From a virus, in IMG/VR virus record IMGVR_UViG_3300031566_000016, positions 1 to 64,000 of that record: a stretch of 64,000 nt of DNA, one strand, 5' to 3'. Below are positions 1 through 60,211 of the stretch, in pieces. How positions within the stretch are numbered: position 1 is the stretch's first letter; every line of letters starts with the position of its first letter. The position numbers and the translations under genes were made by a program. The notes beneath the pieces were generated by a model, which saw only the letters and a list, made by a program, of their open reading frames with translations, made no database searches and was not told where the DNA came from.

Positions 1-210
1 GTGGCTGCAGTACGCCCCATTCGCCGGGCAGTCGCACGTCCACTTCTGCTTCTTCACCCACCAGCGCACCGTGTACTCGCCGGTCGCGCCCTGCACCTTC
101 CAGGTGGGCCAGTCGCCGTGATACTTGCGGACGCCACAGGCCGCCACGATCTCGGCGGCCTTGGATTCGACGGCGGGGGAGAATGTGGTCTCTGCTGCCA
201 CGCTAATCAC
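1..210 (-). CDS. SWIM zinc-finger protein (runs off window edge)
   Basis: Manual translation from GTG at 210: ...KVQGATGEYTVRW...WTCDCPANGAYCSH, a CxC-x5-CxH SWIM motif. Not in the ORF track because it is truncated. Confidence 0.65.
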   Translation of the reverse strand, partial: MISVAAETTFSPAVESKAAEIVAACGVRKYHGDWPTWKVQGATGEYTVRWWVKKQKWTCDCPANGAYCSH

Positions 211-422
211 CCATCCCCGTGTCTACTTGCTAAGGCACCGACCTCGGATAAATCCCCGGGCCCCGACTCTTGTCCGTACTCCACATATTCCATGGATTTG
301 TGCTTTGGTTTGCCGCAGATACTGCAACGACCAACGCCCGGACGGATTGAGAACGACTTGCACTCCAGGCAGAATGCCCGCGTTTGCGTGCGAGTGCTCG
401 GTTTCGCGCCCATTGCATCCAC
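207..422 (-). CDS. small Zn-ribbon protein
   Basis: CLEC...CSICG; overlaps the next start by 4 nt. Confidence 0.5.
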   Translation of the reverse strand: MDAMGAKPSTRTQTRAFCLECKSFSIRPGVGRCSICGKPKHKSMEYVEYGQESGPGDLSEVGALASRHGDG

Positions 423-536
423 CTATGCCTTCTTCGGGATCAATGCTGCCAGCAGAAACAGCACCCCGGCGCCGCTCAGAACACCCATGATGTAGCCGGC
501 CCAGAAGGGCACGACGTGCCAGCCTTGCTCGATCAT
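423..536 (-). CDS. small single-TM peptide (37 aa)
   Basis: Manual translation MIEQGWHVVPFWAGYIMGVLSGAGVLFLLAALIPKKA, preceded by AAGGAG. Confidence 0.45.
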   Translation of the reverse strand: MIEQGWHVVPFWAGYIMGVLSGAGVLFLLAALIPKKA

Positions 537-549
537 CTCAGTCTCCTTG

Positions 550-729
550 TCATCTCTTCTCCCCCATGCCCGTGCATACCCGCTGCCCTCGCAGCATCGC
601 CCAGTGGCAGACCCCGCAGCCGGCGCACGTGGCCCGCGTCAGCCCGTTGCCGGGGTACGGCACCTGCACGTCCTTCCCGCAGGTGCACCGCAGGGTCAGC
701 TTCGCATTCGACGGCGGCGGCGTCCGCAT
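550..729 (-). CDS. small Cys-rich (Zn-finger-like) protein, 59 aa
   Basis: MRTPPPSNAKLTLRCTCGK...TCAGCGVCH...; GAGGTG RBS upstream. Confidence 0.5.
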   Translation of the reverse strand: MRTPPPSNAKLTLRCTCGKDVQVPYPGNGLTRATCAGCGVCHWAMLRGQRVCTGMGEKR

Positions 730-752
730 GGCTCACCTCTGTTGGCTTTCTG

Positions 753-1200
753 GAGGGGCCGGGCGTCTCCTTGTCCGGCACCCGGCCCCTCGTGGGATGG
801 TGCTGCGCACGACAACTTCATTGCCCTGCCCCTGGGGTAAGCGTTCAATGTTCCGCCTCCGGCGTCTGCGGTTTGGTGGTCTTCCTGCGTTTGCCCAAGG
901 GGCAGGGCTGTCATTGCGGAGAGCCGAGGCCTGCTTGATACCCAGTCCAACTTACTCAGGGGAGCGACCCCGTCCTAGAGGTTCCCATAGGGCGTAAAGT
1001 TGCTGCGGTGCCTTGGTACGCTCTCTACTCTGAGCGCCTGTACTCCCCAGCGGGCGGTCTGCCAAACCGCTCTCCGCAATCATCATGCCGCCGGGTAACC
1101 GTCCAGTCCACTCTGACGGGAATGCTGTCGTGGCCCCGGCGGCAAACCTGTCGTCTCAAGCTGCGCTACTCATCGCCCCCGGCACGTCGCGCACTCGACA
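753..1200 (-). ncRNA. array of ~5 abutting stem-closed structured RNA domains (array 1)
   Basis: Perfect inverted repeats 753-763/781-791 (11 bp), 823-833/898-908 (11 bp), 913-924/1069-1080 (12 bp), 1086-1095/1135-1144 (10 bp), and a weaker pair at 1149-1153/1196-1200. No credible ORF here. Confidence 0.55.
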
Positions 1201-1201
1201 A

Positions 1202-1897
1202 CTACGCCTTCTCCGCGCCGGTCTCCGCCATGATCTTCGCCAGTTGCTCCCGCGCCGTCAGCGTGGCATTGTCAGCATCCAACTTCAATGCGATGGCCTC
1301 CTTGATCTGCAGCGCCACCGACCATGCATTGTCAGCCGTCTGCATCGCCGCGGCCAGTTCGGCCGCGTCAACTCCGGTGATCGGCTCGGCCACCACCTCG
1401 ACCACACGGTTCGCGATCAACAGGTTTCGGCACATGGCCGCCACGGACTTCTCCAGGAACTCCAGCGCGGCGGCGAAGTCAGCGATGTTCGGCTTGAGCT
1501 GGACCGCCACGATCAGGGCGATTTCCAGCTTCGCGATGCTGTGCCACTTCTCGTTCGACCGGTACTGGTCCGGGACCAGTAGCTCGGTGATCTCCAGTTT
1601 GAAGTTGTACTTCTGCTCGGTCAGTTCCGGCTGGCCTTCCTCGTGGTCGCAGACGGGTACCAGCCCATTGGGGAACCCGGCTTTCGTCAACGTGTCTTGG
1701 GCCACCATCGCGGCCCCCAACATGAGCCGGGAGAGCGGCCCCGCCAATCCCTCCAGCGTCAGGTCAATGCGCGTCTGCACGTCCTTGTCGCCGTCCTCTT
1801 TGACGCGCCCCAGCACCAGTTCCGTCGCGAAGTCCGCTGTCTGGTAGCTGGGGTTCACGGCCATCTTCAGATACATCGTTCCCATGTCGTCACTCAC
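1202..1897 (-). CDS. hypothetical phage protein
   Basis: Long ORF with GAGG RBS and normal composition; no motif recognised. Confidence 0.7.
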   Translation of the reverse strand: MSDDMGTMYLKMAVNPSYQTADFATELVLGRVKEDGDKDVQTRIDLTLEGLAGPLSRLMLGAAMVAQDTLTKAGFPNGLVPVCDHEEGQPELTEQKYNFKLEITELLVPDQYRSNEKWHSIAKLEIALIVAVQLKPNIADFAAALEFLEKSVAAMCRNLLIANRVVEVVAEPITGVDAAELAAAMQTADNAWSVALQIKEAIALKLDADNATLTAREQLAKIMAETGAEKA

Positions 1898-2348
1898 CTC
1901 TCTGGTTGCACTGCTCACACTCGCAGAGCGGGTCGTCCGGGATGTGCCTCGGCGACATCATCGCCCAGCACTGCCGCCCCAACTCCGTCGTCTCGTCGCG
2001 CACCACCTGCGGCTTCACGTCCGCCCCCACCGTGCCGATCTTGCGGATGCTCATTGGGTCCTTGAACTCGATCATGAAGTCTGTGTCGGCTGCGACGAAC
2101 AGGGCACGAGCTTGTCCCCTGGTGTGCGCGATCACAACGTCACAGACCCGAGCGTACTCAGGGGGATCATAGGAGCCCGACCCGCGCCATGCTTCGCCAT
2201 CACCAGCGTCGCAGTAGTACACGTTCATGGTCTGGCCCCCGTCCCAGCCCTCGGCGTGGGCGCGCTCCGTCCGCGCCGCCCGCGCCTCCTCCCGCGCCGC
2301 CACCTCCCGCGCCTCCGCCTGTATCGGCAAGCCCCAGTTGGTGCTCAT
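1890..2348 (-). CDS. hypothetical phage protein
   Basis: ORF coupled to its neighbours; C-terminal CECEQC. Confidence 0.6.
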   Translation of the reverse strand: MSTNWGLPIQAEAREVAAREEARAARTERAHAEGWDGGQTMNVYYCDAGDGEAWRGSGSYDPPEYARVCDVVIAHTRGQARALFVAADTDFMIEFKDPMSIRKIGTVGADVKPQVVRDETTELGRQCWAMMSPRHIPDDPLCECEQCNQRGE

Positions 2349-2737
2349 ATCCTTGGCTCCCGACTTCCCAGCCCGGCCAGGATGTGTTCGAGGTCTGCCG
2401 CGAGGCGCGTGAACGCATAGGTCGTCTCATAGAGAAGCTCCCCCAGTTCTACATCGTCCTGCACATCAGACCAGTCCATTGTCAGCGTCTCTACAATTTC
2501 GCGCTCATCGTCCCGCAGGACGCACTTCACCGTGTAGACCCGCTGCTGCGTTGGCTTCGCTCGATAGGTCAACTTAGCATACGGAAAGCGCCCTCGCACG
2601 ACGACGAGACACATTTTGATGATGGCCGAGGGCGTCTTGTCCACCACCGCCTGCAAGTCTTCGCGGGAGCAGTGGCCGGCGATGTCAGCAAGCATCTGGT
2701 CGCCGCGCTCTTTCGTGAACTCCGGGTGGTCGCTCAC
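2345..2737 (-). CDS. hypothetical phage protein
   Basis: GTGA-coupled to the upstream gene; start reassigned to GTG 2737. Confidence 0.55.
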   Translation of the reverse strand: MSDHPEFTKERGDQMLADIAGHCSREDLQAVVDKTPSAIIKMCLVVVRGRFPYAKLTYRAKPTQQRVYTVKCVLRDDEREIVETLTMDWSDVQDDVELGELLYETTYAFTRLAADLEHILAGLGSREPRI

Positions 2738-2970
2738 GGCTCCACGCTTCCTCCAACGATCTTCAGGCAGCGACGGCATACGGGCAGCGCGGCGATCTTC
2801 TCCATCGGCATCGTCGCGGTATCCACGACCACCTGCATCATCCCACAAGCCGTGTGCCCCATATACCGCGTTCCCTCTGGTAGAAGGTGGCGCTTTGCCA
2901 TGGTGCGCTTCTGCCCAGACGACCGGATCACGTAGATCATCCATCCAGCCACAGTTCCTCTGTCGCTCAC
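2734..2970 (-). CDS. small His/Cys (Zn-binding) protein
   Basis: RH...TACG...CRRC; coupled to neighbours. Confidence 0.5.
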   Translation of the reverse strand: MSDRGTVAGWMIYVIRSSGQKRTMAKRHLLPEGTRYMGHTACGMMQVVVDTATMPMEKIAALPVCRRCLKIVGGSVEP

Positions 2971-3116
2971 GGCTCCCGCTCCTTCCACTGGCGCAGCCAG
3001 CGCCGCTCCCGCCGGATGTCCCGCACCAGCAGCACCGCGCAGACCACGATCACCAGCGCGAAGAAGCCGAGCACGATGTCATTGACCAGCGCCACCGGCG
3101 TCATGCTCTCGGCCAT
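2967..3116 (-). CDS. small membrane protein
   Basis: GGAGG RBS; MAESMTPVALVNDIVLGFFALVIVVCAVLLVRD has one TM segment. Confidence 0.55.
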   Translation of the reverse strand: MAESMTPVALVNDIVLGFFALVIVVCAVLLVRDIRRERRWLRQWKEREP

Positions 3117-3142
3117 CTCAGTCCTCCGTTTGGATGTAGGGG

Positions 3143-3536
3143 GCCGCCGGGCCGATCTCGGCGCAGAAGGAGGGCACCCCTGCGCTACGACCCGGCGGCT
3201 GCGACTTGAGAGACGCGGACTCTGCGGGACGCGCCTCCCAAAAAGTAGCGGAGGGGGCTGCTTAGTGTTCCCCTGCACGCTTCGCAGGGCGGGTAGCACA
3301 GCCACAATCTCCGGCCTGTCCTCTCCCGGCGTCCCGGTCAAGCAAGGCCCTCCGCAAAACTACTGGTGTGCCGGCCCTCCTATCCCAGGGAGCGACTTGT
3401 CGGAGGCCCTTTCTCTCAGGTCTGCTCTGAGGGAGCCCTTGTGGGTCCGTCACGCGCTGGCGCTTCCTTCGGTGCGGCCGCTCAGACCACGGCCCGCCCT
3501 TCCAGATACCCGGCGCGCTTCTCCACCGACACACCA
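3143..3536 (-). ncRNA. array of 4 abutting stem-closed structured RNA domains (array 2)
   Basis: Stems 3143-3154/3188-3199, 3210-3217/3230-3237, 3248-3255/3348-3355 and 3364-3374/3526-3536. The stem imperfections read as G-U pairs only on the minus strand. Confidence 0.55.
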
Positions 3537-3545
3537 AATCTCAAG

Positions 3546-3989
3546 CTACGCTTCGTCCTTCTCGGTCGCCAACCGCAGCCCTGGCACATCCACCTCAGTC
3601 CGTATCTCCACCAGCACCCCATCCTCGAACACCGCCAGCGTCTCCCGCAATCGCTGCTCCACGTTGTCCCCAATCCGGCCCACGAAGAGCGCTTGTTGCA
3701 CCCCCGCCGCCACCTCCTGGCCCATCTCCAACCCCGCCAGCGCCTCCAGTTGCGCGTTGATGCCCCGCCGCTCCTCATTCACTGCGCGGAGCTGCTCGTC
3801 GATCTGCGCGATGGCGTTGCCGGGGACATTGGGCTGTAGGATGGCCTGCCCGCGCAGTTTCGTCAGCCGATCGCGTTCCTGTAGGAGTTGAGTCTGGGCC
3901 TGCTCCAGCTTCGCCCGCTGGTCGTCCTTGAACTGCTTCGTCACGATCACGCGGATGCCCACTTGCCCGATGAAGGTCAGTTCGTCCAT
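3546..3989 (-). CDS. ylqD: YlqD-family protein
   Basis: N-terminal V-x-IRVIVT, central coiled coil, then LEMGQEV...VGRIGDN...VFEDGVLVEIR, the layout of the YlqD family. Confidence 0.7.
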   Translation of the reverse strand: MDELTFIGQVGIRVIVTKQFKDDQRAKLEQAQTQLLQERDRLTKLRGQAILQPNVPGNAIAQIDEQLRAVNEERRGINAQLEALAGLEMGQEVAAGVQQALFVGRIGDNVEQRLRETLAVFEDGVLVEIRTEVDVPGLRLATEKDEA

Positions 3990-4624
3990 CAAGCATCCTC
4001 CTTCTCGGCGGCGGCCAGCTCCGCCAGTCGCTCCGCGTATTCGTCTATCTCGCCGACCTCCGGGGCCACGGCGTCAGCCGCCGGCGCAGCAGCCGGCGCC
4101 ACCAGATCCTCCACCAGCCGGTCGCTTGCCGCATCCGACCACGGGGCCGGGTACAGGTCAGGGAACAGGACCCTGTGCGCCGCCAGCCACCCGCGACATG
4201 CCTCCAGGGTATGCACAGACCGCGCCTCGCCCCGGTCGCATTTGTCCACAAAGTCCTGCATGATGAGTTGAGCACCGCGGAGCGCAGACATGCCAACGGC
4301 CGCGGGGTCGAGGATGCCGCGTTCCTTTCCGAACGGGTACACGTCCGCCCCCTCGTGGACCGCCATCGCCGGGCACGGCCCCACCGGCCGCGCCCCCTCC
4401 GCGTCCGCCAACACCGCCGCCAACTCCTCCCGCCGCCCCGCCGCCCGAGGCTCGCCGCGCTCCCGCGCCAGCGCCGCCTGCGCGTCCTCTAAGCCCCGCC
4501 GCCATGCGTCGGCCTCCGTCTGGGCATCGGCCACCTTCGAGGCCGCCAGCAGCGCAGCGATCACGATGCCCACCCCGCCCCCCAGGATGAACGCCACGAC
4601 TACCCACGCTGCTGCTACGTGCAT
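3989..4624 (-). CDS. membrane-anchored hypothetical protein
   Basis: N-terminal TM (WVVVAFILGGGVGIVIAALLAA) followed by a helical region. Confidence 0.6.
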   Translation of the reverse strand: MHVAAAWVVVAFILGGGVGIVIAALLAASKVADAQTEADAWRRGLEDAQAALARERGEPRAAGRREELAAVLADAEGARPVGPCPAMAVHEGADVYPFGKERGILDPAAVGMSALRGAQLIMQDFVDKCDRGEARSVHTLEACRGWLAAHRVLFPDLYPAPWSDAASDRLVEDLVAPAAAPAADAVAPEVGEIDEYAERLAELAAAEKEDA

Positions 4625-4625
4625 G

Positions 4626-4841
4626 TCACTTGTCCTCCTGGGTGGATGATGCGGCCAGCGCCTGCGCCCGCTCGTCGTCCAGTCTCGCTTGTTCGAGGAT
4701 CAGGTTCAGGAGGTTATTCGCCGAGCGACCCTGGCTGGACGCATTGGACTCCAGCCACTCCATGCTGGCGCGGGGGATACGAAAGCTGCGTAGTTTGGTG
4801 CGAGGCTCGGGTGGTGTAGGAGTATCGGCGCGCTTTGTCAT
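4626..4841 (-). CDS. Arc/CopG-like ribbon-helix-helix regulator
   Basis: LRSFRIPRASMEWLESNASSQGRSANNLLNLILEQA fits the RHH pattern; first gene after a promoter. Confidence 0.7.
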   Translation of the reverse strand: MTKRADTPTPPEPRTKLRSFRIPRASMEWLESNASSQGRSANNLLNLILEQARLDDERAQALAASSTQEDK

Positions 4842-4868
4842 CTGGGGTCTGCCCTCCTGTGATGACAA

Positions 4869-4897
4869 AGTATAGCGAGTGTTTCGACGTGTGTCAA
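4869..4897 (-). promoter_or_regulatory. sigma70-type promoter TTGACA-17-TATACT
   Basis: Near-consensus boxes. Upstream palindrome TTGTGT-N3-ACACAA (4907-4921) is a candidate operator. Confidence 0.8.
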
Positions 4898-5033
4898 CGT
4901 AATTCTTTGTGTACAACACAAGGAAGCTCCCGCAGACGCCTGAAAGCTCCCCGGCACCCCGAGTGGAGGGGGGTAGCCCCACTTTTCTCCAGCGCAGGCC
5001 ACAGGCACGTCTGTACCCATGCAGGAGAGGCAG

Positions 5034-5070
5034 AACAGAGAACGCCGCCCCGGCATAGGCCAGGGCGGCG
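5034..5070 (-). terminator. intrinsic terminator ending the late/accessory operon
   Basis: CGCCGCCC/GGGCGGCG stem (5043-5070) followed on the minus strand by TTCTCTGTT. Confidence 0.5.
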
Positions 5071-5097
5071 CAGATACATCATTCCGTGCGGCAAGCC

Positions 5098-5301
5098 TCA
5101 GAGCTTGAGGTCTTCCTTCACCTGCGCGGCGGTCGGCGTCTGGTGTTGGCACACGAAGCGCAGTGCCTTCCACACGAGGTCGAACGCCTTCTGGAAGGGC
5201 GTGATCTTGTACCCGGCACTGAGGGCCAGAGTGCAGTACAGCAGGGCGTCCTTCTTCTGGCGGTTGAGGTAGGACAGCATCATCGTTGTGGCCAGGCTCA
5301 T
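5098..5301 (-). CDS. hypothetical protein
   Basis: Short ORF at the operon end. Confidence 0.5.
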   Translation of the reverse strand: MSLATTMMLSYLNRQKKDALLYCTLALSAGYKITPFQKAFDLVWKALRFVCQHQTPTAAQVKEDLKL

Positions 5302-5307
5302 TTCAGG

Positions 5308-5625
5308 TCACCCTTCCTCTGGGTCGAGTGGAACGGATGGTGCGACTGCATAGGTCTTGCTCAGGATCTCCCACGGGCCGACAGCGAAGACCATCGCCAC
5401 TGCCCATTGCATCCAGAACTGCGGCGTGGTGCCGGTCACCACGATCGTCGTCGCGGCGGTAGCAGCGGCGACGGCCAGCAGCTTCGTGACCTTCGCGGCG
5501 GCGGTGTCGCTCAGCGGCCTGCCGGACCAATGGCATATCGCCTTGATGAGCGCGAACACAGCCATGACCACGAGTCCCTGAAGTGCGGCCTGCTGATCGG
5601 GCGGCAGTTGCGTATACCAGTCCAT
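5308..5625 (-). CDS. holin-like membrane protein
   Basis: 105 aa, 2-3 hydrophobic segments, AAAGGAG RBS, end of the late operon. Confidence 0.5.
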   Translation of the reverse strand: MDWYTQLPPDQQAALQGLVVMAVFALIKAICHWSGRPLSDTAAAKVTKLLAVAAATAATTIVVTGTTPQFWMQWAVAMVFAVGPWEILSKTYAVAPSVPLDPEEG

Positions 5626-5659
5626 GTGCGTTCTCCTTTGCTCCAGAGTGTCCCGGCGG

Positions 5660-5764
5660 TCAATGCCGGGCTACGCTTACGATCACGTCCAGCACCGCGA
5701 CGAACACGGCGGCGGCAACGATGAACCCCACCAACTGCAACGCGTACCTCTGCAGCGTCGTCAT
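5660..5764 (-). CDS. small TM peptide (34 aa)
   Basis: MTTLQRYALQLVGFIVAAAVFVAVLDVIVSVARH; ATGA-coupled. Confidence 0.45.
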   Translation of the reverse strand: MTTLQRYALQLVGFIVAAAVFVAVLDVIVSVARH

Positions 5765-5919
5765 GGCCCCCACCTCGTAAAGCAGTAGTACCCGGCCAGC
5801 AGCGCCGCCAACCCCACCACGATCACACACCACAGTATCCGCAGCGCCACCCGCGCCATCGGGTCCTCGCGCTCAGGAGGCTCATCCGCGTCGGGCAGCA
5901 GCAGCGCCGGGGCGGTCAT
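5761..5919 (-). CDS. small TM peptide (52 aa)
   Basis: ...RVALRILWCVIVVGLAALLAGYYCFTRWGP. Confidence 0.45.
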   Translation of the reverse strand: MTAPALLLPDADEPPEREDPMARVALRILWCVIVVGLAALLAGYYCFTRWGP

Positions 5920-5920
5920 G

Positions 5921-6397
5921 TCATTGCCCCGCTATCGTCTTCGCCGCCTCCGCTACCGTCGGTGAGAACCGGATGAACACGGTGCCTAGAAGCATAATGA
6001 GCGCCACGATGATTGGCCCCAGGAACGCCCGCCAGCTCTTGCCGTACTTCACGTCTTCAATCAACTTCGGCAGCGGCTTCGTGACCTGCTCGATGTCATG
6101 CAGCCGCTGCCCGTGGCCGTCCATGTCCCCGCGCAATGACTTCAGGGTCTCCACCTGCTCCGCCTGCACCCGGTCGCACCCGGCCATGCGCTGCAACATC
6201 AGCGGATGCCCATCGGACGCGCTATGCTTGTCAATGCGATCCAGCAACTCCCGGATGATGGCGCGGGCCTCGGTCTTGAACTCCTTCAAGATGGCGGTCT
6301 GCGCTTCCGTCTGCGCCACAATAGTGGCGACATCGGCTTTGATGTCCCCGTGTTGGCTACAGAAGGTGTACGCCCGAACCGGCGGCTGCTCTGCCAT
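5921..6397 (-). CDS. coiled-coil protein with C-terminal TM (holin/XhlA-like architecture)
   Basis: Heptad-rich body plus FLGPIIVALIMLLGTVFIRF. Confidence 0.5.
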   Translation of the reverse strand: MAEQPPVRAYTFCSQHGDIKADVATIVAQTEAQTAILKEFKTEARAIIRELLDRIDKHSASDGHPLMLQRMAGCDRVQAEQVETLKSLRGDMDGHGQRLHDIEQVTKPLPKLIEDVKYGKSWRAFLGPIIVALIMLLGTVFIRFSPTVAEAAKTIAGQ

Positions 6398-37303: not shown

Positions 37304-37687
37304 TTAGAGTTTGGCTACGCCAGTCAGCGACACCACGGCGGTTCCGGCCCCTCCGCCGGCCATGGTGATGCGGACATAGGGCGCCTCGGCTGCGAGCTGC
37401 ATGATCGCCTTGCGAACGGTGACGCCATTGGCGGCCACGCTCACACTGGCGACCAATGCGCCTGTGGAAGCACCGGTGAGGTCAACTACCGGCACGGTGA
37501 ACCACGTATCGCCATCCTCCGACACCTCGGCAGAGAAGACGACCGCGGCGTTGGCCTGGCCCACGATCTCGGCAAAGAGTGTGAACCGCTCATAGCCGAC
37601 AATGTGGCCCAGGCCAACTACGGTACTGGCGCCGCCGACGGCGGCGACTGCTTGGTCAAGGGACTGTTGGATGTCGAATGGTTCCAC
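37304..37687 (-). CDS. putative head-associated structural protein
   Basis: Beta-rich (EVSEDGDTWF, APYVRI); follows the capsid gene. Confidence 0.5.
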   Translation of the reverse strand: MEPFDIQQSLDQAVAAVGGASTVVGLGHIVGYERFTLFAEIVGQANAAVVFSAEVSEDGDTWFTVPVVDLTGASTGALVASVSVAANGVTVRKAIMQLAAEAPYVRITMAGGGAGTAVVSLTGVAKL

Positions 37688-37702
37688 GAGTCAGGCCCCT
37701 TC

Positions 37703-38743
37703 TTAGACGCTGATGTCGAGGATGCCGCTCGGCGCCGTATAGGCGTCGCCATCCACGGCCCCGTCCAACTGCACAGCCACGCCCTGCCCGGGACTCTGGA
37801 TCGTCGGCGCGCCGTAGCGCGTCGCCGTGCCCCACCACTTGTACTGGCTGTTGGGGATGGGCACTTCCTGCGTGAAGAGCAGGTCCACGGTCTCGGGCCG
37901 GTTCTCGGGCTTCCAGACCATCGGCTTCTCTTCGCCCAGGGCCATGTAGAGGGCATACCCGATGGGCACCCAGTCGGTCAGCAGCGTCGGCACGCCCGAC
38001 AGCGGCATACCAGGCTGGAAGCCGTACTTGATGAGGGCCTCGATGAACGGCATGGTCTGGTAGTAGTTCGTGGCCGAGATGGTCCCGAACTCCTGCTCGA
38101 AGAGCGTGCCCGTCGCGCTGTTGGTGAAGCACACCACGCTGCCGCCGGCATAGCCGTGGTGAGCGATGTGCCACTTGGCGAAGGACGACACCTCGGGCGT
38201 CAGGTTGCCGCTGTTGGCGAAGACCACGTAGTGATCGTGGGCCGAGGTGAACGTGTTGGCCCCCTCCGGCGGGGGCGTCAGGTCGGCATCATAGAAGCCG
38301 GCCGGCGTGAGGGCCGTGCCCATGATGAACTGCTCACACCAGATCTGGTCCGCCACCAGCGGCGCCATGGTCTGCTGCTGCAGCTTCGCGGCGCTCATCC
38401 CATGGTAGAAGGCGTCCTGCGTGACCGCAGTGCCCGCCTGGAACTTGCGCGGTGGGTTGATGTCCAGCATGTAGCGCGGCGTGTGCTGCGGGTTGGGCGC
38501 GGCCATGTCGCGGCCGACTTCCTGCATCCGCACGCCGGAGGTCGCTACCTCGATCTGCGAGTCGAACGTGATCTCACAGAACATCTGCAGAAACTGCCGT
38601 GTCCAGGCCTTCCGCAGTTCAATCGACTCCTTGAACTTGATGATCTGCGGGTAGTCTGGCACATACTCGGACGTGAACGCCCCGTAGTTCGGCGCAACGC
38701 CGTAACTCGTGACATCCATCGGGGGCACCACTGCATCGGGCAT
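37703..38743 (-). CDS. major capsid protein
   Basis: 346 aa after the protease and decoration genes; strong GAAGGAGG RBS; PPPEGANTF...HDHY motif. Confidence 0.75.
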   Translation of the reverse strand: MPDAVVPPMDVTSYGVAPNYGAFTSEYVPDYPQIIKFKESIELRKAWTRQFLQMFCEITFDSQIEVATSGVRMQEVGRDMAAPNPQHTPRYMLDINPPRKFQAGTAVTQDAFYHGMSAAKLQQQTMAPLVADQIWCEQFIMGTALTPAGFYDADLTPPPEGANTFTSAHDHYVVFANSGNLTPEVSSFAKWHIAHHGYAGGSVVCFTNSATGTLFEQEFGTISATNYYQTMPFIEALIKYGFQPGMPLSGVPTLLTDWVPIGYALYMALGEEKPMVWKPENRPETVDLLFTQEVPIPNSQYKWWGTATRYGAPTIQSPGQGVAVQLDGAVDGDAYTAPSGILDISV

Positions 38744-39252: not shown

Positions 39253-40485
39253 TTAGCCCGGCAGACCGGCAGTGGCGAGTGCCAGCTTGCGCCGCGCGCT
39301 ACTGAAGGGCAGACCAGCTTCCATGTACCCGATGATCGCAGCGTGGTCTTCGGTGCCGGGGATGACTTCTCCGGCCGCCACGGCCGCCGCCAGCTTCTGC
39401 TCCTCGCTCATCCCGGCAAGGTCGGCCGGTGCGGAAGCCGCGACGTGCAATGCGGGCTTGTCGCCGCCCGGCGCCGGCACCGTCGGCAGGCTGCCGTTGT
39501 TGGCCTGCACCAGCGCCCAGTAGGCGGTCGCGTTCTCCTGGTTGGCCGGGTCCACCTTGAAGGACGCCGCCACCTGGATCGCCTCGGGGGCGATGGCCCG
39601 CAAGTCCGTCTGGATCGTGCCATCCGGCAGCTTCGTCCCGACCGGGATGCGCACGGACTCGAACTCGCGTATGGCTTCATCCAGCCGCGCCTGCGCCTTG
39701 GCCTGCTCGGACTCGGCCAGCAGCACCTCGACCTGCTTCTGCAGCTTGTCGTAGTCTCCGGCCTTCTCGGTCAGTTCGGCGATCTGCGCCAGGAGATCAG
39801 TCTTCTCGGTCTCCGCGGCTGCCAACACATCGGCCTGTTCCTGCTCCCAGGTGGCCTTTGCCGCCGCGATGGCTTCGTCAATCTGCGCCTGAATGTCGTC
39901 GGGCATGGTCGCCATCACTCCTTCGTCTGAAGTATCGGTAGCGGCAACAGCCGCCGTTGCTTCCTCGAATTGCGCGGACGCCAGGATCATGTGCGGCTGA
40001 CCGCCATGCTGCGGCAAAGGCGTCAGGGCCGCCGCAATCAGGATGTTCCTGCGCCCCCAGTCGGGATCAGGCAAATCCCCAACCGTGTAACGCGGGGAGG
40101 TATAGGGCATGTTGCCAGCAGCGATCACCGGCTTGCCATACTCCGTCGGGGTGAATAACCCGTAGATACCCGGCCCATACTCACCACTCTCGTCAAACTT
40201 CAGATCGCTGTAGTAGGCATAAGCTCCGTCTGGATTCGTGCTGTGGTCAGCTCGCTCGTTGGCCGGGACGCCCAGGGATGTGGGGAAGCCATCCTTGAAG
40301 TTCGCAACCATCTCATCGAGCCACTCTCGGAGAATGTCAACCTCGACCGTCTCGAACTTTCCGGTCTTGGAGTTCCTCACCTGCAGGTGGTACTTGCCGA
40401 GGGGGACGACAGGAAGCCAAGTGGGCGTTCCGTCCTTGGGGATCGCGACTGCACCGCTGGAGTTCCACGCCTGGGGGTAGGCCAC
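39253..40485 (-). CDS. Mu gpI-like prohead protease/scaffold
   Basis: LDEMVANF, DH, YTSPRY, AAALTPLP, followed by a coiled-coil scaffold region. Confidence 0.75.
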   Translation of the reverse strand: MAYPQAWNSSGAVAIPKDGTPTWLPVVPLGKYHLQVRNSKTGKFETVEVDILREWLDEMVANFKDGFPTSLGVPANERADHSTNPDGAYAYYSDLKFDESGEYGPGIYGLFTPTEYGKPVIAAGNMPYTSPRYTVGDLPDPDWGRRNILIAAALTPLPQHGGQPHMILASAQFEEATAAVAATDTSDEGVMATMPDDIQAQIDEAIAAAKATWEQEQADVLAAAETEKTDLLAQIAELTEKAGDYDKLQKQVEVLLAESEQAKAQARLDEAIREFESVRIPVGTKLPDGTIQTDLRAIAPEAIQVAASFKVDPANQENATAYWALVQANNGSLPTVPAPGGDKPALHVAASAPADLAGMSEEQKLAAAVAAGEVIPGTEDHAAIIGYMEAGLPFSSARRKLALATAGLPG

Positions 40486-40495
40486 TTGTCACTCC

Positions 40496-40725
40496 AAACG
40501 AAAAGGCGCAAGCGCCTCGGGTGAGGCCCTTGCGCCATCAGGGCTACCAGCGCGTTGCTCGTGGCTTGCGCCTCGTTCGCTTGCTACCGCGGGAGGGGCC
40601 TTCTCTCGAAGCACCCCTCCCGTTCCGCAAAGGAGGCGCATCGGGGCGAGTGAAGCGGCGCTGTGAGCTTCGTTCAGCAGGCTCTTCCCCTGCGCAGAGG
40701 AAGAAGATGCCTATCGCCTTGGCAT
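40496..40725 (-). ncRNA. structured 5' leader of the protease-capsid operon ending in a terminator-like hairpin
   Basis: Hairpins ATGCC/GGCAT, CTTCCTCTGC/GCAGGGGAAG, GGGAGGGG/CCCCTCCC with a GAGA tetraloop, and GGCGCAAG/CTTGCGCC followed by TTTTCGTTT. Confidence 0.55.
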
Positions 40726-59159: not shown

Positions 59160-60211
59160 GCACCGAGACCGCGCCGAAGACGATCACCCTGGGGGACTGG
59201 CTCAAGGGCATGACCCGCATGGTGGCGGGACTAGGCGCAAATGGATTCTATGCAGCGGCAGAGGTCGGGCCGACCACATACATCGGCGAGGGCCCGACCC
59301 CCGAGGACGCGCTGCAGGAGCTCGCCGAGACCGTCTGCGGCCCCGGCACGCTGCTGGACCTCGGGCGCTCCGCCAAGTGGGCGGCGGCCCACGGCCCCGA
59401 CGGAGTGGCCGGCCTATCCGAGGGGGAATGCGGAGTGGTCGAGGTGAAGGATGGGGCGCTGCGACTCATGGAGACGCTGGGGACGCCCGAGTATCACACG
59501 GAGGGCGACCAGCTCATCGTGGAATACCGCAAGGCACCAAACGACACCGCCGGCCTGGCCGAGGGGGAATGGGGTGTCGTCGTCTGCCGCGAGGGGAAGC
59601 TACTCCTAGATGACAAGATCACGCCGGAGATCATGGAGCGCATCGGGCCATTCTTCTCCCGGAGAGTGCGGGACAACGACACCCCTACCGCGCGCGCCCC
59701 CAACACCTGCGAGACCGGCCTGCCCGTCGTCTACCCGGACCCGCCCGCCGAGACCCGAACGGAGAACCTCCAGCGCCGCGTGGATGAGCATATCGCAGCG
59801 CACCCCGAGGTACTGGGCAACGCCCACGATGGCAAGGTGACGATCTCACTGCCCTCCGAGGGCCCGGCCGACCGCCTCGCCGAGGCCATCATCGGACTCG
59901 CCGAACGCTGCCACGCCACCAAGACGGCACCCAGCCTCGACACCGATGTGGAACGGGGCGGCATCCGGGATACCCTGAACCGCGTCAGCGCCTGGGCTGC
60001 CGAACACATGGGAGAAGGGACCGTGCTGCAGCACCATACCGCTAACGGCATTCTCCTGCAACTGCAGCATGGCGGCAGGACGTTTCCCGATGCACAGATA
60101 TACTACGATCTGAAGCGCCTCACGCCCGGCGACTTCTCCCGCCAAGTGGACGAGATGCTGGCGGCCTGGGAGAAACTGCTGAAAGGGATGAAGGAGGAAG
60201 ACCATGAGTGA
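59156..60211 (+). CDS. hypothetical phage protein with short internal duplication
   Basis: AGLSEGECGVV / AGLAEGEWGVV. Confidence 0.65.
   Translation: MSTETAPKTITLGDWLKGMTRMVAGLGANGFYAAAEVGPTTYIGEGPTPEDALQELAETVCGPGTLLDLGRSAKWAAAHGPDGVAGLSEGECGVVEVKDGALRLMETLGTPEYHTEGDQLIVEYRKAPNDTAGLAEGEWGVVVCREGKLLLDDKITPEIMERIGPFFSRRVRDNDTPTARAPNTCETGLPVVYPDPPAETRTENLQRRVDEHIAAHPEVLGNAHDGKVTISLPSEGPADRLAEAIIGLAERCHATKTAPSLDTDVERGGIRDTLNRVSAWAAEHMGEGTVLQHHTANGILLQLQHGGRTFPDAQIYYDLKRLTPGDFSRQVDEMLAAWEKLLKGMKEEDHE

Follow-up and report, generated by a model that had tools for sequence, protein, structure and literature searches.

Hairpin-closed modules in an untranslated spacer of a soil phage operon

Locus and operon

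The DNA analyzed here, referred to as the window, comprises the first 64 kb (64,000 nucleotides, nt) of IMG/VR record IMGVR_UViG_3300031566_000016, a soil viral contig of 75,153 nt; coordinates are window positions unless another sequence is named. The element under study, Array 1, is a 472-nt gap on the minus strand (730–1201) in which four adjacent domains, D1 to D4, are each closed by a perfect helix of 10–12 base pairs (bp). An original prediction, made from the letters alone, had described this gap as five abutting RNA domains inside a phage operon, possibly small RNAs released by processing.

All genes near the array lie on the minus strand, which is the sense strand in what follows. The operon that contains Array 1 is headed by a sigma-70-type promoter, TTGACA-17-TATACT (4869–4897, minus), which matches the consensus at 11 of 12 positions and stands behind a canonical terminator (5042–5071, minus). 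Behind this promoter are found a 211-amino-acid (aa) gene, a YlqD-family gene, a 429-nt sister spacer termed Array 2 (3117–3545), a 49-aa membrane gene, a 199-aa gene and a 152-aa gene ending ...PLCECEQCNQRGE*, all on the minus strand. These are followed by an orphan gene (1202–1918, minus; stop at 1202–1204), whose open reading frame (ORF) of 238 aa probably yields 227 aa from the ATG at 1885. Array 1 separates the orphan gene from a 59-aa Cys-rich zinc-ribbon-like gene (550–729, minus), which starts at ATG 729–727 behind the ribosome-binding site AGAGGTGAG (732–740, minus). Next come a 37-aa membrane gene and a SWIM/RecT-like gene that crosses the contig end, both on the minus strand, the RecT-like gene lying about 1 kb downstream of Array 1. 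The predicted location inside one operon is hence borne out, the genes being co-oriented behind a strong promoter.

The contig encodes a Mu-type portal, a tape-measure-like protein and DNA methylases. The only matches of the portal are to actinophage portals, at 23–26% identity. Searching GenBank phages with positions 1–6000 (blastn) gave no DNA-level match, and the RecT-like protein had no match among phages by tblastn.

Four stem-closed domains

Array 1 is non-coding, as had been predicted. Its GC spread over the three codon phases is at most 0.22, versus 0.3–0.7 in the adjacent genes, and the ORFs within the gap match no Pfam family. A hidden or decayed protein gene in D1–D4 was rejected on these two grounds, the lack of codon periodicity and of any Pfam match.

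The four closing helices ("closers") are perfect, disjoint inverted repeats of 10–12 bp, separated by linkers of 31, 4 (909–912) and 5 nt (1081–1085). This confirms the originally described closers, now with exact coordinates and as independently closed modules, and likewise the short linkers. D1 (39 nt, 753–791, minus) is closed by the GC-rich 11-bp stem GGGGCCGG/CCGGCCCC (753–763/781–791; −31 kcal/mol) and ends 23 nt before the next start codon. D2 (86 nt, 823–908, no strand assigned) has a closer that is also of 11 bp (823–833/898–908); counting its extension, the helix spans 21 positions, of which one is a G.A mismatch and two are G-U pairs on the plus strand only. The nine-position extension (835–843/888–896) pairs fully only on the plus strand, both G-U positions being A.C on the sense strand, and D2 folds at −39 kcal/mol in sense and −54.5 kcal/mol in antisense. 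An RNase III substrate has about two turns of coaxial double-stranded RNA; of the four domains, D2 alone spans 21 positions, with 20 pairs on the plus strand and 11 plus interrupted pairs in sense. D3 (168 nt, 913–1080, minus) has a perfect 12-bp closer (913–924/1069–1080) and contains the inner hairpin GCGCUC-AGAGUAGA-GAGCGU (sense; 1014–1037, minus), its interior on the sense strand being not clearly more folded than shuffles. D4 (59 nt, 1086–1144, minus) is closed by the perfect 10-bp helix GCCGCCGGG/CCCGGCGGC (1086–1095/1135–1144).

In 3000 dinucleotide shuffles of the 472 nt, no more than two perfect repeats per gap were ever obtained, versus the four observed, which is more than chance would give. 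A cluster of four repeats within 450 nt appeared in one of 60 whole-genome shuffles. The count of stems of at least 10 bp with loops of at most 250 nt over the whole 75-kb genome is 38, versus 29 ± 5 in shuffles, i.e., 1.7 standard deviations above. In a partition-function fold of positions 650–1300 (651 nt), all four closers present mean pair probabilities of 0.91–1.00 on either strand.

The whole gap presents a fold z-score of −2.8 in sense and −4.6 in antisense. Per domain, the sense/antisense values are −5.4/−4.7 for D1, −3.7/−6.1 for D2, −1.6/−2.8 for D3 and −3.1/−2.6 for D4. Among 1500 sliding windows on two strands, 751–950 is the top outlier, and no other 200-nt stretch of the 75-kb genome is as structured. 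Further fold outliers (z from −2.7 to −3.4) are found at window positions 40451–40700, 37451–37750 and 59251–59450, and at genome positions 70851–71050 and 71151–71450.

The Array 1 stretch is not an assembly artefact, since independent Logan contigs from three soil runs reproduce it letter for letter.

A related locus and the fifth block

The only related locus reached, L002, covers 6.2 kb of a 41.5-kb contig from a soil metagenome and was found via the 59-aa protein. The gene of this protein is the downstream neighbor of the spacer in both phages (78–81% aa identity), and in L002 it is again preceded by a non-coding gap, of 590 nt (2411–3000). A blastn search found no copy of D1–D4 in L002. 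The sole piece of Array 1 that matches it by blastn is a 47-nt block (1151–1197, minus; 46/47 nt), which corresponds to the fifth of the predicted domains, D5, and whose two flanks in L002 are non-homologous. The coding DNA around the block presents 76–86% identity to L002, and the upstream genes of the two phages show no relationship.

Translated in frame, the block yields VECATCRGR* in the window and ECETCRGR* in L002, the C-terminus of a CEC(E)xC zinc-protein gene situated one gene further up. In the window, this relic copy of the coding end lies at 1170–1199 (minus) and is out of frame with the gene before it. The gene-end sites are at 1170–1199 and 1890–1935 in the window (both minus), and at 2087–2106 and 2411–2430 in L002. 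The two L002 sites, the real gene end and the block respectively, share the 20 nt CGAGTGCGAGACGTGCCGGG and flank a 95-aa gene (2123–2410); the same slot in the window holds the unrelated 238-aa gene. The block has a fold z-score of −0.3 in sense and −1.85 in antisense, and the region of about 1145–1200 is unstructured.

Given that the block reads as the CEC(E)xC C-terminus and that 20 nt of it recur on the other side of the inserted gene in L002, D5 is judged to be a relic gene end from cassette insertion or exchange, and not an RNA domain. Thus, the prediction of five RNA domains stands for four of them and falls for the fifth, which consists of a relic gene end together with a motif of 14 nt. 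The slot looks like a gene-cassette exchange site.

Head motif and loop-conserved hairpin

The 14-nt motif, AGCGCAGCTTGAGA (= AGCGYAGCTTGAKA), lies at the end of the relic and at the head of Array 1 (1154–1167, minus). A second exact copy heads Array 2 (3539–3552, minus), and two more in L002 (1655–1668 and 2441–2454, sense) head two spacers that follow genes. Each of the four spacers is headed by a copy, always in the sense orientation and either at a stop codon or just behind one, and the motif itself provides stops in two or three frames. Proteins might bind it, as they do stoperators or nut sites, or it might serve as a linker in recombination. Its TTGAGA/TTGATA letters were also considered as a −35 box and rejected, as inspection by eye found no −10 box 16–18 nt away in any of the four copies.

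In Array 2, a hairpin at 3208–3241 (minus) has a counterpart at L002 1671–1707. The 11-nt loop CCCGCAGAGUC is kept, while the stems are wholly different yet still pair (GGGAGGCGCG/CGCGUCUCUC versus CCCGGUGUG/CACACCGGG), with G-U pairs on the sense strand. By sequence comparison, this is the clearest covariation in these spacers and the best evidence for selected folding, and together with the 14-nt motif it argues that parts of the spacers are under selection. The L002 hairpin starts 3 nt after the 14-nt motif, directly behind a small RHH-type gene and an early promoter; a promoter of the same sigma-70 type as that of the window lies at L002 1402–1429.

Mosaic modules

The 590-nt spacer of L002 is over-folded (z of −3.0 in sense and −2.3 in antisense). 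It includes a closed module with a perfect 10-bp stem (hairpin 2657–2695) and a closer of 13 positions (2903–2975) that ends 25 nt before the ATG. Array 1, Array 2 and the L002 spacer 2411–3000 each finish with a strong closed domain, 23, 26 and 25 nt, respectively, before the next ATG; the fourth spacer (L002 1657–1776, 120 nt) has no closed domain there.

Sharing between spacers is of fine scale, and the modules are mosaic. The D4 closer, GCCGCCGGG/CCCGGCGGC, also closes the last Array 2 domain (3143–3199), the D4 interior is identical at 18 of 23 positions to the loop and 3' arm of L002 2657–2695, and the D1 stem, GGGGCCGG, is found again in this L002 hairpin. A stretch of about 100 nt in Array 2 (3354–3446) aligns with L002 2809–2905 at 72%. 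An overall paralogy of Array 1 and Array 2 was rejected, as their local alignment is no better than that of shuffles.

Variation is also found among strains. The three soil DNA runs contain otherwise identical sequence in pieces and thus yield no covariation. In one run, at low depth, a 91-nt contig over 980–1067 carries a variant that swaps just 1014–1037, the D3 inner hairpin, with identical flanks; the listed differences (9/10 substitutions and 3/3 indels) all fall in 1014–1037. One soil contig may join 933 to 1142, with 934–1141 (208 nt) skipped or replaced; its short side has 36 nt and is weak. Judged by these comparisons, the slot is filled with exchangeable hairpin modules and not with a conserved RNA gene.

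Such exchange might leave nothing but debris, the helices being tolerated accidents of GC-rich DNA with no selected function. In favor of this are the lack of D1–D4 in L002, the origin of D5, which is certainly gene-end debris, the overall folding of Array 2, which is not above that of shuffles (z of −1.0 and −0.7), and the genome-wide repeat count at just 1.7 standard deviations. However, none of the 3000 shuffles held four disjoint perfect helices, and Array 1 includes the most structured window of the genome. Both phages keep a gap of about 0.5 kb despite most neighboring genes abutting or overlapping, and the head motif and loop-conserved hairpin indicate selection on spacer parts. Hence, we consider an origin as mere debris improbable.

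Known RNA and repeat classes

The original prediction had likened the last domain to a tRNA acceptor, GGGGCCG...CGGCCCC-U-CCA. The letters are present, UCCA being found at 754–751, but within the 11-bp helix U754 is paired with A790 and C753 with G791, leaving no single-stranded discriminator plus CCA. CCA follows neither of the terminal hairpins of L002. ARAGORN reported 0 tRNA genes in the 64 kb, and Rfam models gave no tRNA or tmRNA in window 1–2000, either at the gathering score or at E ≤ 10; nor did any other Rfam match reach the gathering threshold or E ≤ 10. Even under permissive settings, a search of both phages with the Rfam 15 families returned chance-level matches only, the best one inside the array being mir-431 (21 bits versus a 70-bit threshold). 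A tRNA, a tmRNA or any Rfam family was thus rejected from the ARAGORN and Rfam results, and acceptor or CCA mimicry is unsupported, given the nil results, the CCA overlapping the helix and its absence in the relative.

Within 730–1201, TRF found no tandem array and a direct-repeat search found no repeat family. A CRISPR, a TIGR array or a type III antitoxin RNA array was rejected, no constant tandem unit being found there, and the statement that the locus is neither CRISPR nor tRNA cluster therefore holds (ARAGORN, Rfam, TRF and direct-repeat search). No promoter or U-tailed terminator lies within 730–1201 on either strand. D1–D4 have no U-run on either strand, whereas canonical terminators are present at window 5042–5071 and L002 1206–1235; a terminator cluster was accordingly rejected. 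Membership in the PeSL (promoter-early stem-loop) cassettes of T4-type phages was also rejected, as the gap holds no promoter or terminator and has no paralogous copies; one PeSL-like trait, repeated flanks around a swapped gene (the 20-nt direct repeat of L002), is a likeness and not membership.

No module has copies elsewhere in the 75-kb genome beyond chance-level 10–13-mers. A search for copies of the REP/BIME kind found none more in the 75-kb phage, and scanning viral and genome collections for exact patterns returned nothing. A search of plasmids with Array 1 gave no match. The viral contig collection had no match for the 238-aa protein, the terminase, the RecT-like protein or the 59-aa alignment, nor for DNA patterns of the D1, D2 and D3 helices and the fifth block, and both scans of the genome contig collection were without match. 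The array is no tRNA mimic, CRISPR/TIGR-type array, PeSL, terminator cluster or catalogued RNA.

These results bear on the proposal, in line with the original prediction, that the modules are excised at their stalks and accumulate as stable small RNAs acting in trans, as regulators, protein sponges or defence decoys. The layout as beads on a string, with linkers of 4–5 nt and perfect stalks, resembles the processing stalks of rRNA and tRNA operons. The number of modules exceeds what a role in cis requires, and their rapid turnover between relatives and strains fits arms-race cargo. CAGAGU-like loops at hairpin apices of all four spacers (5 occurrences versus 0.75 expected from genome frequency) would also fit. 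However, this enrichment fails correction for all k-mers, and the loop motif was rejected as a secure signal. In addition, no tRNA-like or known RNA family signal was found, the CCA is not conserved, the modules have no orthologues, and stalks of 10–12 bp are short for RNase III. Release as small RNAs is possible, yet rather doubtful.

One could go further and regard Array 1, Array 2 and the L002 spacers as an undescribed class of phage RNA cassette arrays. Stalk-excised modules would have their interiors swapped as cargo, e.g., sponges or decoys for host RNA-binding or defence proteins, and a phage protein, e.g., the adjacent small zinc-ribbon or YlqD-like one, would recognize the dedicated head motif and the loop-conserved hairpins. 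We regard this extension as speculative and unlikely.

Which strand folds

On the sense strand, Array 1 contains 34% G versus 30% C. In imperfect helices of at least 11 positions, G-U pairs in Array 2 and the L002 spacers number seven in sense versus one in antisense, whereas in Array 1 they number one versus three, the wobble positions of its two long imperfect helices falling on the antisense strand. Given that only four positions are informative, this reversal is a hint only, and could reflect an antisense RNA, an inversion between perfect arms or chance. The four closers consist of Watson-Crick pairs only and so are uninformative as to strand, and palindromes at the DNA level fit them equally well.

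If the reversal were taken at face value, D1–D3 would form a separate plus-strand RNA, antisense to the operon, that regulates the flanking early genes. The plus strand does fold better overall (z of −4.6 versus −2.8), D2 reaches −54.5 versus −39 kcal/mol there with a pair probability of 1.0 in its helix extension, and the two long imperfect helices have their wobbles as G-U on that strand only. However, the nearest plus-strand promoter is a weak 9/12 match at 347–375, with no terminator, the asymmetry is weak (four informative positions, p of about 0.06), and all other spacers of both phages point to the sense strand. An antisense RNA is thus very improbable.

A further alternative is that the signal lies in the DNA, i.e., that the modules are palindromes or foldbacks able to insert, to invert or to recombine, either selfish elements like REP/BIME or MITE or substrates of a RecT-type recombinase, with RNA folding as a by-product. 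Perfect Watson-Crick closers with abrupt ends are as expected from DNA inverted repeats or quasi-palindrome correction, and an inversion between perfect arms could explain the opposite wobble polarity of Array 1. The slot is a recombination hotspot (20-nt direct repeat, mosaic modules, 24-nt strain patch and possible 208-nt deletion or replacement), and a RecT-like gene lies about 1 kb downstream. Yet the modules have no other copies in the 75-kb genome beyond chance-level 10–13-mers, the phage, plasmid, viral-contig and genome collections hold nothing similar, and no transposase lies nearby. Moreover, the conserved loop and compensating stems of the sister spacer argue for selection on a folded strand. 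We find this DNA-level origin unlikely.

Neighboring genes and contig ends

The 59-aa protein has no Pfam match, and a protein-atlas comparison gives generic zinc-ribbon look-alikes only; for these reasons its identification as a Mu Com-type regulator was rejected. The 238-aa protein has one relative among 5.8 billion proteins, with 83% identity, on a 1136-nt JGI contig, and its alignment found no match in the metagenome collection. The YlqD-family protein (3546–3992, minus; Pfam PF11068, E-value of 1e-13) is encoded directly before Array 2. Since the bacterial family is encoded in the rpsP-rimM-trmD ribosome-maturation operon, an RNA-related role of the phage protein is conceivable.

What appears at the start of the window as a SWIM-domain gene encodes the N-terminal part of a 578-aa SWIM/RecT-like protein. 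The alignment with L002 (4066–5802) runs over window 183–1 and then over genome 75153–73331. As it spans both contig ends, the record is circularly permuted or complete across the 1/75153 joint. A second variable slot is found at window 211–422, a stretch missing in L002. A 71-aa zinc-ribbon ORF (207–422, minus) has nearly no codon periodicity, and one contig of soil run X3 has 353 other letters in place of 184–522.

Proposed role of the array

The reading that we favor, though only tentatively, is that Array 1 is a sense-strand, cis-acting, structure-dense untranslated spacer of shuffled hairpin cassettes that serves processing, stability or insulation. The array would be read on the minus (sense) strand as part of an early polycistronic mRNA from the promoter at 4897–4869. 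Its modules would fold independently, each perfect closer of 10–12 bp isolating one module, so that the 0.4-kb stretch folds as beads on a string, and they would be exchanged by recombination among related phages. In cis, the double-stranded stalks may act as endonucleolytic cutting sites, as exonuclease barriers or both, and may uncouple the upstream cistrons from the downstream block of the 59-aa gene. The last hairpin, 23 nt before the start codon, would be a 5' stabilizer or boundary of the downstream message. Dense folding and a sense composition of G over C may also keep this long ribosome-free RNA from being a Rho entry site. The stretch 1151–1197 would stand outside the RNA array, its relic gene end and 14-nt head motif marking the slot of gene-cassette swaps.

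We prefer this reading because the non-coding gap lies between co-oriented genes behind a strong promoter, with no internal promoter or U-tailed terminator, and because its four closers are significant and thermodynamically dominant. The same-slot spacer of L002 is also over-folded and has other stem-closed modules, and three of the four spacers end with a closed domain 23–26 nt before the ATG. Fine-scale module sharing (D4 closer, D4 interior and D1 stem), the Array 2 hairpin with its kept loop, compensated stem and sense G-U pairs, and, finally, the sense-strand excess of G and the sense-strand motif heading all four spacers point in the same direction.

Several observations weigh against the cis-acting spacer. 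D1–D4 have no orthologue in L002, the only relative found. The antisense strand of Array 1 folds better and holds most of its wobble pairs, including those of both long imperfect helices, and the pure Watson-Crick closers fit DNA palindromes equally. In addition, one hairpin per cistron end is enough for stabilization, so that four abutting modules exceed what the model needs.

Given how tightly phage genomes are packed, it needs explaining that two diverged soil phages keep two non-coding spacers of 0.4–0.5 kb at matching places in the operon. If cis-acting, they would show how phages of high-GC soil bacteria insulate and process long early transcripts, and how genes are exchanged at joints formed by small hairpin cassettes and relic gene ends. 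Released RNAs would enlarge a growing group of modular non-coding RNA arrays of uncultured phages, one still to be catalogued. More narrowly, the idea of a tRNA mimic no longer needs to be entertained, one domain has been accounted for as a gene relic, and the conserved motif and covarying hairpin are available as experimental handles.

Comparison with known systems

According to Arbiol et al. (2010, PMC2839356), the PeSL cassettes of T4-type phages are short stem-loop non-coding repeats between non-essential early genes, where recombination swaps genes among close relatives, and each combines a strong sigma-70 promoter with a working terminator in many genomic copies. The present locus is similar in that its slot, occupied by unrelated genes in the two phages, is bordered by a direct repeat of 20 nt and a conserved block of 47 nt. 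Unlike PeSLs, Array 1 has no promoter, U-tailed terminator or repeated unit, and has four different long-range closed domains.

RNase III processing hairpins are found at the early and late sites of T7 and at lambda sib, and processing stalks in rRNA operons. As in Array 1, these are intercistronic, strongly paired irregular helices in one long transcript, with a hairpin near the next ribosome-binding site. However, T7 has one site per junction, versus four abutting domains in Array 1, whose predicted stalks are perfect helices of 10–12 bp, D2 alone reaching about 20 positions.

Of REP/BIME elements there are typically tens to hundreds of almost identical copies, with the host encoding a RAYT transposase, and they are transcribed and stabilize mRNA. 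They resemble Array 1 as extragenic mosaics of GC-rich palindromic units with short linkers inside operons, but no Array 1 module recurs in the 75-kb phage genome. GOLLD, ROOL, phi29 pRNA and YrlA (Y-RNA-like) are likewise phage-borne, multi-helix and several hundred nt long. Array 1 differs from them in having no Rfam score at E ≤ 10, in not lying beside tRNA genes and in not being conserved in L002.

For the head motif and the loop-conserved hairpin only, the comparison is with the stoperators of mycobacteriophage L5 (about 30) and the nut sites of lambda (boxA plus boxB). These also are short asymmetric motifs in one orientation at gene stops inside early operons. The arrangement in L002, where the motif is followed 3 nt on by the loop-conserved hairpin behind an RHH-type gene and an early promoter, resembles lambda cro-nutR. 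By contrast, just two motif copies are seen per phage, and their sequence is not convincingly boxA-like.

By analogy, the closest systems in working principle are the intercistronic processing or stabilizing hairpins of phage mRNAs and the mosaic palindromic spacers of the BIME type, with PeSL shuffling as the nearest counterpart for the flanks.

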